DNA from: an uncultured Desulfobacter sp. | Lineage (GTDB): Bacteria; Desulfobacterota; Desulfobacteria; Desulfobacterales; Desulfobacteraceae | DNA: 64,000 bases | Assembly: GCA_963665095.1 (NCBI GenBank) | Contig: OY762069.1 | Coordinates: forward strand, 5,792,001 to 5,856,000 | Reading direction: 5' to 3' | In this document: positions 4,653 through 9,650 of the stretch, in pieces | Layout of the letters: each line of letters starts with the position of its first letter | How positions within the stretch are numbered: the stretch's first letter is position 1 | The notes under the pieces: model-generated | The model's input: only the letters and a program-made list of their open reading frames with translations | Database searches by the model: none | What the model was told of the DNA's origin: nothing | Position numbers and translations under genes: made by a program

Positions 4653-4706
4653 AAAAAAAAGGCCCGGATTTTTCAGACACCGTCATCAGTCTGTCAAATA
4701 CCGGGC
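4653..4706 (-). terminator. Intrinsic terminator after the kinase-REC-REC/FNT operon
   Basis: A8-GGCCCGG...CCGGGCC stem, giving a U tail on the minus strand. Confidence 0.55.
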
Positions 4707-4762: not shown

Positions 4763-6016
4763 TTATCTGGCCGCATCCGCCCTGGGCCTAAGATAGGCGC
4801 CCCAGTACCCTACACCAACGAACAGGGCACCGCCAATGATATTGCCCAGGGTGACCGGGACAAGATTATCAACAATAAATGCGGTCCATGTCAGATCCGG
4901 GGACCCGGTAATGCCGGCCCAGTGGCTGAGAAAAATCCCGGAAGGGATGAAATACATGTTGGCCACGCAGTGCTCAAATCCAATGGCCACAAACCCCATG
5001 ATAGGAAAAAATACAGCAAAGATTTTAGAAATGGTCTGGCGGGAGGCCAGCGCCATCCATACGGCCAGGCAGACCATCCAGTTACATCCCACAGCCCGGA
5101 TAAAAGCCTCTGACCAGGAAAGATGCACCTTGGCAAGGGCAATGCCAACAGCTGCCTGGCCAAGCTTTCCGCCACCGGCCTTCCACAGACCGGACCCGTA
5201 AAAGAGCAGGGCCAGAAGTATGGATCCCAGAAAGTTGGCACCATAAACAATGCCCCACTGGGCTGCCATTTTTTTAAAGGTGATTTGTCCGGTCATTACG
5301 CTGGAGACCATCAGGCTGTTGCCGGTGAACAGCTCGGCACCTGCAATGACCACCAGCATCAGTCCGATACTGAATGCCGCCCCGCACACCAGCTTTTTCA
5401 ATCCCAGCCCCAGAACCGGGGAGAAATCAAAGGTCACGGAAGTTGAGAAAAGTCCCCCAAATCCTATATATGCCCCGGCCAGTACGCCCAGGACAAACAG
5501 GGATATCCAGGGGGAGTTGGCTTTGGCCACACCCACATTCTGTGCCACGGTCTCTGCAATGATGCTTGGCCCCTTGTCATCCAGGCTTGGGACGGGAAAT
5601 TTCCCCAGCACCTGCTGGGCCCGGCTGATGGCTTTTTTCTCCTGCCGGATTTTGCCGTCCATGGCCTTGCGGACCACCTGGGTGAGTTCCTCCGGGGTAA
5701 AGGGCTTGGTCAGAAACTCCATGGCTCCGCGTTTAATGGCCTCGGCAGCCCGGTCCGGTGAGGGAAACCCGGAAAACATCACCACCGCCGCTTCCGGGCA
5801 CCGTTCCTCCAGTTCGGACACCACATCCATGCCGTTGAGCCCAGGCATTTTCCAGTCGCACAGGATCACCGTATAGTTGCCCCGGGTGCTCATTTCAAGA
5901 CCTTTCACAGGATCTGTGGTGGTATCCACCTCAAAGCCTGAGTCCCGGAAAATCGCCTGGCAGGAAATCAGTACGGCATTGTCATCGTCAATTACCAGCA
6001 TCCGGTCTTTTTTCAT
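4763..6016 (-). CDS. Fusion of a response-regulator receiver domain and a formate/nitrite transporter (FNT) channel
   Basis: N-terminal VIDDD...LCDWKMPG...FSG...LTKPF; C-terminal GAELFTGN, GCNWMVCLAVW, GFEHCVANMY, LGNIIGG; one continuous frame. Confidence 0.92.
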   Translation of the reverse strand: MKKDRMLVIDDDNAVLISCQAIFRDSGFEVDTTTDPVKGLEMSTRGNYTVILCDWKMPGLNGMDVVSELEERCPEAAVVMFSGFPSPDRAAEAIKRGAMEFLTKPFTPEELTQVVRKAMDGKIRQEKKAISRAQQVLGKFPVPSLDDKGPSIIAETVAQNVGVAKANSPWISLFVLGVLAGAYIGFGGLFSTSVTFDFSPVLGLGLKKLVCGAAFSIGLMLVVIAGAELFTGNSLMVSSVMTGQITFKKMAAQWGIVYGANFLGSILLALLFYGSGLWKAGGGKLGQAAVGIALAKVHLSWSEAFIRAVGCNWMVCLAVWMALASRQTISKIFAVFFPIMGFVAIGFEHCVANMYFIPSGIFLSHWAGITGSPDLTWTAFIVDNLVPVTLGNIIGGALFVGVGYWGAYLRPRADAAR

Positions 6017-6088
6017 TTTCCATTCTCCCCTTATAATCCCCTTCATGGGGACAATTCCCCGGAATTTAATAGATTCCGGGATGTTTGG

Positions 6089-6487
6089 TTATTCATTGCC
6101 ACCCCTGCGGCGTGTCATTGTTCTGGCCGCTGTCTCCATTGTCCTTTTTACTGCATCTGTCAGCTCCTTCGGGGTAAAGGGTTTGGCAACGAAACCGAGT
6201 GCCCCGGCACCAGTCCCTTTCGTTTCTATTTCCGGCATAAGATATCCTGTCATCATCAGCACCGGGATCTCGGGATGTGTTCTGGTTATCTGTTCCACCA
6301 GAAGAATGCCGTCCTCACCCGGCATCATGATATCCGATAAAATCAGATCCACAGACCCTGCCGTTTTAAGAATGTCCCGGGCGGTTTGTGCATCCGGTGC
6401 TATAAGAATCCGGGTATTTTCATCCGAAAGGATCCTGCAGCAGCTTTCCAGCACCATGACGTTGTCGTCCACCACCAGAATGTTCAT
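6089..6487 (-). CDS. Stand-alone response regulator (receiver only)
   Basis: VVDDN, LSDIMMPG, MTG, AKPF; ATGA overlap with the kinase stop. Confidence 0.92.
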   Translation of the reverse strand: MNILVVDDNVMVLESCCRILSDENTRILIAPDAQTARDILKTAGSVDLILSDIMMPGEDGILLVEQITRTHPEIPVLMMTGYLMPEIETKGTGAGALGFVAKPFTPKELTDAVKRTMETAARTMTRRRGGNE

Positions 6488-8325
6488 CTTGCCTCCTTGT
6501 TTTCCGGCCCCGGGCAATTGCAGGGCAGCCAGATAAAGAAGACCGATCCCTGACCCGGAGTACTCTCCACCCGGATTTTGCCATTGTGACGTTCCACAAT
6601 GCCAAAGGATACGGCAAGCCCGAGCCCGGTACCCTCTCCGGCCGGTTTGGTTGTAAAAAACGGCTCAAACAGCTTATTTATATTTTCCGGACTGATGCCT
6701 GATCCTGTATCCCGGACCTGAATCTCAATGCCCTGCTCCTGCTCTGAGTTTTTGGGACGGGCTGACACCTCCACCCTGCCTCCGGAAGGTGTGGCATCCA
6801 TGGCATTGAGAACCAGATTCACGACGACGCTCTGGATCTGATTTTTATCCATCCGGACCCGGGGCAAAGAGGCATTCCCGGAATAGAAGAGGTGTACCCC
6901 CTTGAGCAGGGCCTGGTTCTTCATCAGCTCCACGGTGTCAGCCAGCATGGGATCCGGCTCAAAGGTTTCCCGGTCCAGTTTGGGCTGTCGGGAAAAGTCC
7001 AGAAGGCCTTTCACGATTTTTCTGACCCGCTCTGTCTGAAAGGCAATGACTTCCAGGTCTTTGCGAACCTGGTCCGGCAGATCCTTGCGGGCCAGAATCA
7101 GGTGGGTGAAGGTTAGAACCGGGGTCAGCGGGTTGTTGATTTCATGGGCCACACCTGCCGCCAGTTTGCCGATACTGGCCTGTTTTTCCGAACGGATCAG
7201 TTCCCGGCGGCGTTCTTCCAGCTGGGCCTGGTTTCGCTGAAACAGGGCGTGGGACATGGACATGAACGCCTTTTGAAGCAGCCCGATATCCCCCGGGCTG
7301 ACAGGGCCGATATCCGGTGACAGGTTGCCTGCGGAAATTTCCATGGACGCCCTGAGCAGGTGGTTGACCGGCTGCATGATCCGGTCAGCCAGGAATGTTC
7401 CCGCAGCAATGGCCAGAACAAGGCCTGCCAGGATCACGGCGGAGAATACCCAGATGGTCTTGTTCCGGACATCCCTGTATTTTGCTTCCAGAACGCCTAC
7501 ATAAAGCATCCCCACCCGTTTCCCGAAAATATCTGTGATGGGTTCATAGGCGGTAATGTACCAGTCATTCACCACCAGAGCCCGGTCTGTCCAGTTGTCT
7601 CCCTTTTCCAGGACCTGGCGGGAAACCTCTTTGGACGCCCGGGTTCCCACAGCCCTTGATCCGTCTTTCATGAGCACGGATGTAGAGATCCTCAGGTCAT
7701 TGAAAAAGATGGTGGCCGTGCCCACATTCCGGCCCCGGTAAATTTCGTTTCTGAATACCGTATCCCCGATTTTATCAACAATGGTTTTATCCTGATTCAG
7801 AACCATGCCCCCGAAGATAACCGCTGTGACCCGGCCACCCGCCATGACGGGAACTGCTGCCCCGGCCACAAGGTTCGAACCGGAAACAGCGGTTCCTGAA
7901 ACGGTCTTTTTTCCGGCCAGTGCCTGCCAGGCTATAGGCAGGTGGCTCTTTCCGGGCTTGGGCTGGTTTTTAAATCCGGTGCAGGTATATATCCGGTCCT
8001 CAGGAATGAGAATGCCTGAGAAATCAAGATCGAGTCTTTGGGCCAGTTGTCTGATCCGGTCCATGGGAAGGGTGGCATTGCCTGTGGCCAGAGCAGATGT
8101 CAGATCATCAGCTCTGGCAGCGGTTTCCAGGGAGATGCGGATGGTACCCACCCGGTCGTCGTAAATCAGTCTGGCCACATTGAGATCCTGACGGACCCGG
8201 TTAAAGGCTTCGTTGAGTACGGATTTGTAAAGCAGTGACCAGCCAGCGGCAAAGGAGATGCCTGCCACAGCCAAAGCCACACTGATCAGGCTGAATATGA
8301 GCTTGGACCGGGTTGAATAAAGCAT
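6484..8325 (-). CDS. Sensor histidine kinase (TM-Cache-TM-HAMP-HisKA-HATPase)
   Basis: Two TM helices, ATIF..RISTSV..RAVGT..YITAYEPI..GMLYVG Cache-type motif, AHEINNPL, DTGSGI, GTGLGL. Confidence 0.93.
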   Translation of the reverse strand: MLYSTRSKLIFSLISVALAVAGISFAAGWSLLYKSVLNEAFNRVRQDLNVARLIYDDRVGTIRISLETAARADDLTSALATGNATLPMDRIRQLAQRLDLDFSGILIPEDRIYTCTGFKNQPKPGKSHLPIAWQALAGKKTVSGTAVSGSNLVAGAAVPVMAGGRVTAVIFGGMVLNQDKTIVDKIGDTVFRNEIYRGRNVGTATIFFNDLRISTSVLMKDGSRAVGTRASKEVSRQVLEKGDNWTDRALVVNDWYITAYEPITDIFGKRVGMLYVGVLEAKYRDVRNKTIWVFSAVILAGLVLAIAAGTFLADRIMQPVNHLLRASMEISAGNLSPDIGPVSPGDIGLLQKAFMSMSHALFQRNQAQLEERRRELIRSEKQASIGKLAAGVAHEINNPLTPVLTFTHLILARKDLPDQVRKDLEVIAFQTERVRKIVKGLLDFSRQPKLDRETFEPDPMLADTVELMKNQALLKGVHLFYSGNASLPRVRMDKNQIQSVVVNLVLNAMDATPSGGRVEVSARPKNSEQEQGIEIQVRDTGSGISPENINKLFEPFFTTKPAGEGTGLGLAVSFGIVERHNGKIRVESTPGQGSVFFIWLPCNCPGPENKEAR

Positions 8326-8406
8326 GTGGTTTCCTTTGCTTTTCCGGCAACCACCCTGTTTTTGTCCTTTAGGATGCGGTTGCCCTGTTATTCTAAAGAA
8401 AACAGG

Positions 8407-8422
8407 AGCAAGTTGAATACCA
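8407..8422 (-). promoter_or_regulatory. Putative sigma54 (-24/-12) promoter
   Basis: TGGTATTCAACTTGCT on the minus strand (GG-N10-GC), ~80 nt upstream of the kinase ATG. Confidence 0.55.
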
Positions 8423-8744
8423 CAGGGGAAACCATAGTGAAATTAACGGCTCAATATGAAAGAGAGCCTTTTATATAAGGGCTTTTCAGGTTTTATTTGC
8501 CTTTTAATATAAGCCGGGCGTTGCCGTGGTGTGAAAGGGGCAGGACACAAAGGGTTTCCATGGTGTAAAGAAAAACGACACCAGGTTTTTCTCTGCTGGC
8601 TTTTATTTTGGGGATTTGTAATTGGCGTCCGCAGTTTTCACGCAGTCTTTTTTGTTCAATCCAGCCTTACAGTTCAGTCTGTGTTATTTTCTGGTGTCCG
8701 GTTCAGATGTGCAAACTGTTTTCGTCAGGGAGCTTTTGAAATAG

Positions 8745-9650
8745 TTATTGCTTTCTGTTATCCGGAACGGGGTGGTTCACTTCAGGAAAGTGTTTCTTCA
8801 GGCATTCAGGGCAGATGCCGTGACTGATACTGGCACTTGAATGGTCTTGAATATAGTCCTCCACCTGATCCCACGTTCCTTTCTCATTCCTGATTTTTTT
8901 ACAGAATGAGCATAAGGGCAGGATGCCTTTGAGCACCTTGATTTCGTCCATGGCTTTGTGCAGGTCTGCGTTGCTTTTTGACAGCTTGTCCCGCTGGTTG
9001 CTTACTTCATTTATCAGCCGTGCCATGGCACGGCGGTAGGAAAGGATGGTCACGCAGGACACAATGAAAAAATAGGCGATACAGAAAATGTAAACGGTCC
9101 AGTGTAAAGGGCTGGTCAGCAAAAGGCCCGTGTCTATGTTAAGTACTACCTGGTTTGAAATAAATCCGGCCCCGATCAGTGAAAGGGAAGTTATAACCAG
9201 CAACACAAAAATTCCCACTGCCTGTTCTGAGTAGAAAACCGCCATGATGACGGCAGCCAACTGGAAGAATATTAAGCCTGCCGATAATATGCCAAGGGTT
9301 AGGATTCCGCAAAGGGCGAGGCCCAGGTTCATTATAATCAGAATGAGTGCCTTGGTTTTCGTTGGTATTTTTTGACGATAAAGCGCCGTTCCCACTATAC
9401 TGACGAAAATCAGAATCTGAATAATATCCCGTACACCCCAGCCAATATATAAAGCCCTGGCCTGGGACATTAGAAGGGCGACTCCGCCACAAACAGCCCA
9501 TATTATGACGATAAGATTGATCAGACGATCACGGAAAAGATATTCACCGGACAGGTGTTGATTCTTTCTGGGATCTGCCTTAAATATTTCGGGGATATCC
9601 TGCCAGTTGCACGGAAAAGATTCGGCCTTGCCATATAGAACCTGTTTCAT
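8745..9650 (-). CDS. Polytopic membrane protein with a coiled coil and a C-terminal CxxC...HGICxxC putative Zn-binding domain
   Basis: ~6 hydrophobic helices then LKGILPLCSFCKKIR...SHGICPEC. Confidence 0.8.
   Translation of the reverse strand: MKQVLYGKAESFPCNWQDIPEIFKADPRKNQHLSGEYLFRDRLINLIVIIWAVCGGVALLMSQARALYIGWGVRDIIQILIFVSIVGTALYRQKIPTKTKALILIIMNLGLALCGILTLGILSAGLIFFQLAAVIMAVFYSEQAVGIFVLLVITSLSLIGAGFISNQVVLNIDTGLLLTSPLHWTVYIFCIAYFFIVSCVTILSYRRAMARLINEVSNQRDKLSKSNADLHKAMDEIKVLKGILPLCSFCKKIRNEKGTWDQVEDYIQDHSSASISHGICPECLKKHFPEVNHPVPDNRKQ

Follow-up and report, generated by a model that had tools for sequence, protein, structure and literature searches.

What does a two-component system control when no protein encoded in its operon appears to bind DNA? 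The question is raised by a 64,000-nucleotide stretch of DNA (the window) from an uncultured Desulfobacter sp. (assembly GCA_963665095.1, contig OY762069.1, positions 5,792,001 to 5,856,000 of the forward strand), wherein three co-oriented minus-strand genes encode, in this order, a sensor histidine kinase, a free receiver, and a receiver fused to a channel domain of the FNT family. Two-component systems mostly act through transcription, and we know of no demonstrated case in which a receiver directly sets the activity of a channel. The sole visible output domain of this cassette is the formate-type FNT channel. From comparisons of sequences and structural models, we lean slightly toward the interpretation that this two-component system senses formate and adjusts the activity of its channel post-translationally.

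A receiver and a channel in one reading frame

The kinase gene (8325..6484; 613 aa) encodes a transmembrane segment, a double Cache periplasmic domain, a second transmembrane segment, and HAMP, HisKA (with His394) and HATPase_c domains. Its likely start at 8325 lies about 100 bases inside the upper bound of 8422 set by an initial annotation of this DNA. The ATG of the free receiver gene (6487..6089; 132 aa; Response_reg in Pfam), whose product has an intact phospho-site and a variable alpha4, overlaps the TGA stop of the kinase gene. The fusion frame (6046..4763; 427 aa) carries Response_reg at residues 17 to 125 and Form_Nir_trans at residues 169 to 415. Homologue lengths and a GGGGAG site favor a start at 6016 (Met11, giving 417 aa), and the residue numbers used here are those of the 427-aa frame. 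From its N terminus, the fusion consists of the receiver domain (5657..6016, with the phospho-acceptor D64 at 5855-5857), a linker (5570..5656) in which an extension of alpha5 is followed by a conserved F-P-x-P-S-x-D-D-K segment leading into the channel N-terminal helix, and a FocA/FdhC-like FNT channel domain (4763..5569) with an intact N-terminal helix, pore, and C-terminal Y-L-R. All of these features are on the minus strand. Pfam and profile scans found no DNA-binding domain in the kinase, the free receiver, or the fusion. The initial annotation had described a compact operon of a Cache/HAMP kinase, a stand-alone receiver and a receiver-FNT protein in one uninterrupted frame, with nothing that binds DNA, and this description stands, at the same place in the window.

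Homologues of the fusion were compared as the best 120 of 7,954 matches (64-100% identity); kin among the loci are not independent in any of the counts given here. The combination of Response_reg and Form_Nir_trans, previously read from a single sequence, is present in 120/120 of these best matches. Given this recurrence, and because the receiver-channel junction is covered, with no indel, by contigs from four runs that belong to four studies, we reject an assembly artefact or read-through as the source of the fusion. Homologues encoded as two genes, an objection foreseen in the initial annotation, did not appear: no receiver gene with a separate intact FNT gene was found in the loci fetched, where the unfused cases are channel losses, and no dedicated search was made for shorter proteins.

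The acidic pair, phospho-aspartate, serine and lysine noted earlier in the fused receiver correspond to D20, D21, D64, S92 and K114, and the canonical residues of a phosphorylatable receiver are all present; the free receiver is likewise intact. D20, D64 and K114 are invariant in 120/120 homologues, and position 92 is Ser or Thr in every one. The linker residues F150 and P151 are equally invariant (D156 is found in 119), and the distance from the receiver KPF motif to the AET motif of the first channel helix is 50 to 52 residues in 156/161 rows, duplicates included.

The channel domain scores above the cut-offs of PF01226 (269.6 versus 34.6) and TIGR00790 (250.8 versus 232.3), below that of the FocA equivalog TIGR04060 (228.5 versus 290.1), and below that for NirC (130.6 versus 293). 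Its closest structural match is FocA. The FTGN, CN and FEH motifs reported previously are kept as F-T241-G-N, C-N322 and F-E-H359. The pore His, the Omega-loop Thr and both constrictions are retained throughout 141/141 fused proteins, wherein the equivalents of FocA F75, L79, L89, T91, N121, K156, N172, V175, F202, E208, H209, A212, N213 and N262 were all found. Equivalents of P12 and K26 in the FocA N-terminal helix are also invariant, and that of G23 is present in the channel of the window.

Named records of the fusion are from Desulfobacterota, and further loci belong to a spirochaete and to Myxococcota bins. Of 401 sampled genomes of the phylum, 72 have an FNT, and the fusion is carried by 18 of these, including the genome of the window; for FNT matches that were not fetched, the open frames did not exceed 395 aa and could not encode it. 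Within the family of the window, the fusion is present in 10/112 genomes, which marks it as an accessory, patchy cassette, and seven genomes have an unfused FNT alone. The FNT of the fusion is the only one in this 6.9-Mb genome. Because the long NirC branch distorted a first tree of the channel domains, the tree used here comprises 49 of 118 rows, from which long branches are absent. In it, the 20 main fused rows group together on a single branch (SH-aLRT 92), which sits in a supported group with channels linked to formate dehydrogenase, apart from FocA.

Other domains joined to FNTs were also encountered. A receiver is C-terminal to the FNT in P0253 (five members), and N-terminal with a longer linker in P0245 (three members), which falls outside the main fused clade. 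An independent origin of P0245 is not demonstrated, as a single-clade topology was not rejected (p-AU 0.31). In five genomes of one family, a ferritin/rubrerythrin-like domain is N-terminal to the FNT (L111:2647-3939, also L112-L115; 430 aa), with the gene located beside a glycosyltransferase in L111, the only one of these loci scanned.

The kinase sensor and its probable link to formate

Pfam assigns sCache_3_3 (residues 176-289), HAMP, HisKA and HATPase_c domains to the kinase, and the motif H394-E-I-N-N-P is present in 117/120 kinase homologues (the other three are truncated) and in 20/20 syntenic kinases. An AlphaFold model (predicted local distance difference test, pLDDT, 90.9; predicted template modeling score, pTM, 0.86) contains two periplasmic modules. 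The membrane-proximal module (sCache_3_3; 7459..7800, minus strand) has a formate-type pocket as judged by sequence match, and 52 of its 118 columns are conserved at 95% or above, versus 7/105 in the poorly conserved, CitA-like membrane-distal module (7831..8145, minus strand). CitA aligns to residues 21-150 of the kinase model, and the distal module has lost about 34 residues in this lineage relative to most homologues, with only 16 residues in a segment where 76/120 homologues have 50.

The only significant sequence matches of the periplasmic domain in the PDB are 8PY1 and 8PY0, a result that a profile search reproduced. A structure search with the model likewise placed these two entries first among 48,161 chains (Z 17.1, root mean square deviation 2.1, 151 residues aligned; and Z 16.3, root mean square deviation 1.8, 134 aligned). 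Their lead is small because the generic double-Cache domains in the following rows reach Z 15.5. With Foldseek, 8PY0 was seventh by E-value and had the highest identity and lowest root mean square deviation among the top rows. 8PY0 and 8PY1 are formate-bound Cache domains with defined contact residues (PMC11804620). The published spacing maps the contacts to T205, R212 and Y260 of the kinase, and two conserved threonines to T215 and T228. All five residues are kept in 120/120 kinase homologues. Another sCache_3_3 domain with the same residues is reported to bind formate (bioRxiv 2025.02.11.637667). Four hydrophobic pocket positions carry conservative exchanges, wherein V217, W245, V251 and Y275 replace Ile, Tyr, Ile and Phe, and 23 of the 31 syntenic kinases have exactly this set. 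Residue matches and the structural model make the periplasmic pocket a likely formate sensor. This Cache domain is the only sCache_3_3 match of the genome, and the sole FNT and the sole sCache_3_3 thus share one operon. Elsewhere, the same sensor domain was observed in frames of about 355 aa, too short for a kinase domain (L154, L157 and L162; family f17).

Formate is also the substrate suggested by relatives of the channel. All nine of the closest unfused channels fetched, one of which supplied the query, adjoin a gene for a formate dehydrogenase alpha subunit, and four of these genes pass the TIGR01591 cut-off when TGA is read as selenocysteine. Among 63 more distant FNT loci, an alpha-subunit match was found in 11, six of them weak. 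For 20 loci that have related kinases and no fusion, such a match is present in five, and NuoF- or NuoG-like genes in three more. In a genome with three such genes, we estimate that a random 13-kb stretch would be expected to hold one in less than 1% of cases, and several of the loci are kin. The genome of the window has three cytoplasmic-type and two FDH-N-type formate dehydrogenase alpha genes. It contains no pyruvate formate-lyase above the cut-off (best TIGR01255 match 147.9 bits versus 994.2), pflB does not neighbor the fusion, and no nitrite reductase was present among the neighbor genes scanned. Where the initial annotation had left the substrate among formate, nitrite and hydrosulfide, these sequence data point to formate for both sensor and channel.

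Two receivers and a proposed route of the signal

Distinct fused genes numbered 34 among the loci fetched; two of them, at the short locus of the window itself and at a contig end, were left out for insufficient flank. A Cache kinase on the same strand lies at most 2.4 kb upstream of the fusion in 31/32 other loci, which extends the kinase synteny proposed from the window. In the exception, L010, the Cache kinase is farther away and on the opposite strand, together with a sigma-54 regulator. In this same locus, a FeFe-hydrogenase-like domain fused to a histidine kinase (L010:9305-11341) directly follows the receiver-FNT gene, and hydrogenase maturation genes come next. Between kinase and fusion there is a free receiver in 28 of the 31 loci and nothing in the other three; one locus has a receiver-kinase hybrid at this place, and a DNA-binding regulator was found there in none of the 31. 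Beyond the cassette, no flanking gene was conserved in the loci scanned.

Nine of the 31 cassettes also contain one or two copies of a gene that we call REC-X, which encodes a receiver followed by an 80-aa tail with weak similarity to Franean1_4349. Examples are L001:6369-7735, L008:5007-5633 and seven other loci, with tails resembling Franean1_4349/Os1348. The same 80-aa tail occurs at the C terminus of an FNT, P0257, in a Dehalococcoidales cluster of 28 members; this shared sequence suggests a tie between the REC-X domain and FNT channels. A search of the Atlas with the tail gave no usable match.

In receivers, alpha1 serves for kinase docking and alpha4 for output. Across 17 loci, the identity of the beta1-alpha1 segment is 0.66 in the free receiver and 0.67 in the fused one, and that of the KPF-alpha5 segment is 0.65 and 0.68, respectively. 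For alpha4, identity is 0.82 in the fused receiver versus 0.35 in the free receiver. The conserved alpha4 face of the fused receiver (P95, R99, E102, M104, R106 and M109) is rare in the other receivers of the genome. Of 176 genome receivers, the free receiver resembles the fused one most closely overall, with a lead of one point. On the alpha1 positions it comes second after a hybrid-kinase receiver, and neither of these two best matches is a transcription factor. We infer that both receivers take phosphate from the cassette kinase, wherein the free one would be a dispensable sink and the fused one would act on something. The free receiver is likely a phosphate sink or buffer.

These comparisons bear on whether the fused receiver might be a passenger or a membrane-tethered sink on a constitutive channel. 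Neighboring genes fuse easily, and the patchy distribution noted above would suit such an origin. However, the fusion is kept across several orders with a fixed linker, its alpha4 is better conserved than the remainder of the receiver (0.82 versus 0.66), and two sinks without any output would leave the kinase purposeless. We consider a passenger receiver extremely improbable. Control of the channel by phosphorylation fits the phospho-site, the fixed linker length, the kinase synteny, the apparently selected output face and the sink-like free receiver.

The N-terminal helix of FocA is described as flexible, able to block or reshape the vestibule, binding PflB, and regulating translocation, with K26 needed for two-way flux (PMC12559229). 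With this in mind, we infer ligand, phosphotransfer, gating and direction as follows. Formate outside the cell would bind the membrane-proximal Cache pocket, as the sequence and structure matches suggest, and the signal would pass through HAMP to His394, a route established for such an architecture. D64 of the fused receiver would then take up phosphate, as would the free receiver, a presumed sink that may set threshold and reset. The alpha4 face and long alpha5 of the fused receiver would reposition the channel N-terminal helix, and the pentamer would pass formate between the periplasm and the three cytoplasmic formate dehydrogenases. We mildly prefer a version in which formate opens the pore for uptake over one in which it shuts the pore against back-flux or uncoupling. 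We hold it an even matter whether the full proposition is correct, namely a phospho-aspartate-gated channel in a transcription-free loop, wherein a formate-sensing kinase gates a formate channel, the receiver takes the place that PflB has on FocA, the circuit is widespread in sulfate-reducing and syntrophic bacteria, and receivers were joined to FNTs more than once.

Several observations weigh against a formate-driven, phosphorylation-controlled channel. One group concerns the ligand. Tyr275 replaces a size-limiting Phe that excludes acetate, and PacF is described as binding formate distally (PMC11804620), whereas the pocket in the kinase is in the proximal module, second in sequence and next to the second transmembrane segment. 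Position 275 is Ser, Gly or Ala in 7/31 syntenic kinases, and two of these seven have Cys for the key Arg with the fusion intact (29/31 retain Arg). A formate dehydrogenase alpha gene is nearby in only 2/23 fused loci. The pocket itself is common, with relatives of the sensor domain in 131/401 genomes of the phylum, and is therefore not specific to the cassette. The same circuit might serve nitrite, hydrosulfide, or a larger carboxylate such as acetate or lactate, and not mainly formate. The four exchanged hydrophobic positions, the small pocket floor in those seven kinases, the acyl-CoA synthetase genes near several cassettes, and the broad permeability of FNT channels would all suit another anion. 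Set against this, all polar formate contacts are kept, the channel scores higher as FocA than as NirC (228 versus 131 bits) and ends with the Y-L-R tail, and the unfused sister channels reside in formate dehydrogenase operons. We regard another anion as quite unlikely.

A second point against pore gating comes from the model of the fusion. The AlphaFold monomer (pTM 0.57) gives no receiver position on the channel and no receiver-channel contact. Its alpha5 continues unbroken into a helix some 30 residues long (107-137 in model numbering), and the linker that leads into the channel N-terminal helix is of low confidence (pLDDT below 50 over 133-166, model numbering). Phosphorylation could instead alter assembly, stability through proteolysis, or the docking of a partner, for example REC-X or one of the cytoplasmic formate dehydrogenases. 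The loosely modeled linker leaves room for such indirect control, and the presence of REC-X in 9/31 cassettes, with its tail also on an FNT, hints at a protein-interaction module. However, a linker fixed in length and sequence suits mechanical coupling, and there is no REC-X gene in most cassettes or in the genome of the window. Indirect control therefore appears to us unlikely, if less so than a different anion.

The third group concerns the direction of the signal. Kinase and receivers remain as open frames in at least three genomes in which the channel has decayed or is gone: only fragments of it remain in G277 (L164:6792-7350), it is cleanly lost in G254 (L165:4832-5203), and G266 has the kinase, the receiver and REC-X with no FNT match (L166:3467-6409). 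Because relatives of these genomes are intact, they look like channel losses, and together they make up a deletion series that arose in nature. Related kinases without the fusion, with or without a free receiver, were found in G196, G166, G293 and G223, and in the fused protein P0243 the receiver is intact and the pore degenerate. Sigma-54 regulators often accompany relatives of the sensor domain, and an output in trans is therefore possible. These facts would agree with reverse flow, wherein the channel acts as a transceptor that informs its receiver of anion flux or pH, the receiver tunes the phosphate pool of the kinase, and the true output is elsewhere, either REC-X or a sigma-54 regulator in trans. 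Yet the cassette has no other conserved output gene, the pore is invariant in 141/141 fused proteins, the losses look like recent deletions in a single family that is intact in its other members, and the best alpha1 matches of the fused receiver are not transcription factors. We strongly doubt reverse flow. As a separate observation, a related Cache kinase and a larger regulator are followed downstream by a receiver joined to a NuoE-like 2Fe-2S domain (L174:7104-8048), another non-DNA output.

Neighboring features, related systems and significance

A sigma-70-like promoter candidate (8506..8535, minus strand; 10/12 matches) lies 5′ of the kinase gene, and a terminator-like hairpin with a T run (4655..4678, minus strand) lies 3′ of the fusion gene. 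Both come from consensus scans only, for which reason the hairpin evidence is weak, and eight terminator-like sites were found versus 5.3 expected. No sigma-54 site is present upstream of the operon (eight matches in the window versus 6.9 expected). Further upstream is a gene for a 301-aa membrane protein (8745-9650, minus strand) with a weak MASE11 match and a Cys/His-rich C-terminal tail, which is not conserved beside the cassette elsewhere. In another part of the window, sfsA is split into two overlapping plus-strand frames (1993-2340 and 2154-2768, within 1993-2768), which suggests a frameshift or sequence error.

The channel resembles FocA of Escherichia coli, Salmonella and Vibrio (PDB 3KCU, 3Q7K, 3KLY and 9G49) in its fold, in all pore residues tested, in P12, G23 and K26 of the N-terminal helix, and in the C-terminal Y-L-R, at about 39-40% identity. 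Unlike FocA, it carries a covalently linked receiver at its N terminus and is encoded behind its own kinase rather than beside pflB, and the genome lacks the partner PflB at the profile cut-off. The nearest unfused relatives (48-55% identical) are the FdhC-type channels of formate dehydrogenase operons on the same supported branch. In contrast to these, the fused clade has mostly left the enzyme operon and gained a signaling cassette. The formate Cache domains PacF, Atu0526, R3 and R6 share with the kinase the Arg, three Thr and Tyr at the published spacing; almost all are in chemoreceptors with single-module or distal binding, whereas here the protein is a histidine kinase with its pocket proximal, beneath a CitA-like distal module, and with four hydrophobic positions changed (PMC11804620).

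As in response regulators with other non-DNA outputs, the receiver is N-terminal to its effector through an extended alpha5. Surveys of response regulators by Galperin reportedly include a "transporter output" class, and we know of no tested transporter fusion among such proteins. Post-translational coupling of a small-solute channel to signaling is familiar from the block of AmtB by GlnK and from Amt-kinase fusions. Those cases involve a separate PII protein or join the channel to the kinase, whereas here a phospho-aspartate receiver is within the channel protein and the kinase is separate.

Literature searches found no paper describing a receiver-FNT fusion, and a listing in the Galperin surveys of 2006 and 2010 or their supplements is possible. 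The main text of an FNT family survey (PMC5525234) does not contain "response regulator", "receiver" or "fusion", and PMC4395418 holds nothing relevant to the fusion. The public record P0059 already bears the name "response regulator receiver protein modulated with fnt". The parts are thus each known, and the chance that their combination amounts to a new mechanism, a phospho-aspartate-gated channel, seems to us evenly balanced.

If this mechanism is correct, the receiver would be a built-in switch for the debated control of formate passage and its direction by the FNT N-terminal helix, and it should be possible to lock the channel in each of its states by mutating one Asp or by BeF3-. A ligand would also be predicted for the large kinase family to which this sensor domain belongs. 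For sulfate reducers and syntrophs, the cassette would provide a fast control point for formate exchange.

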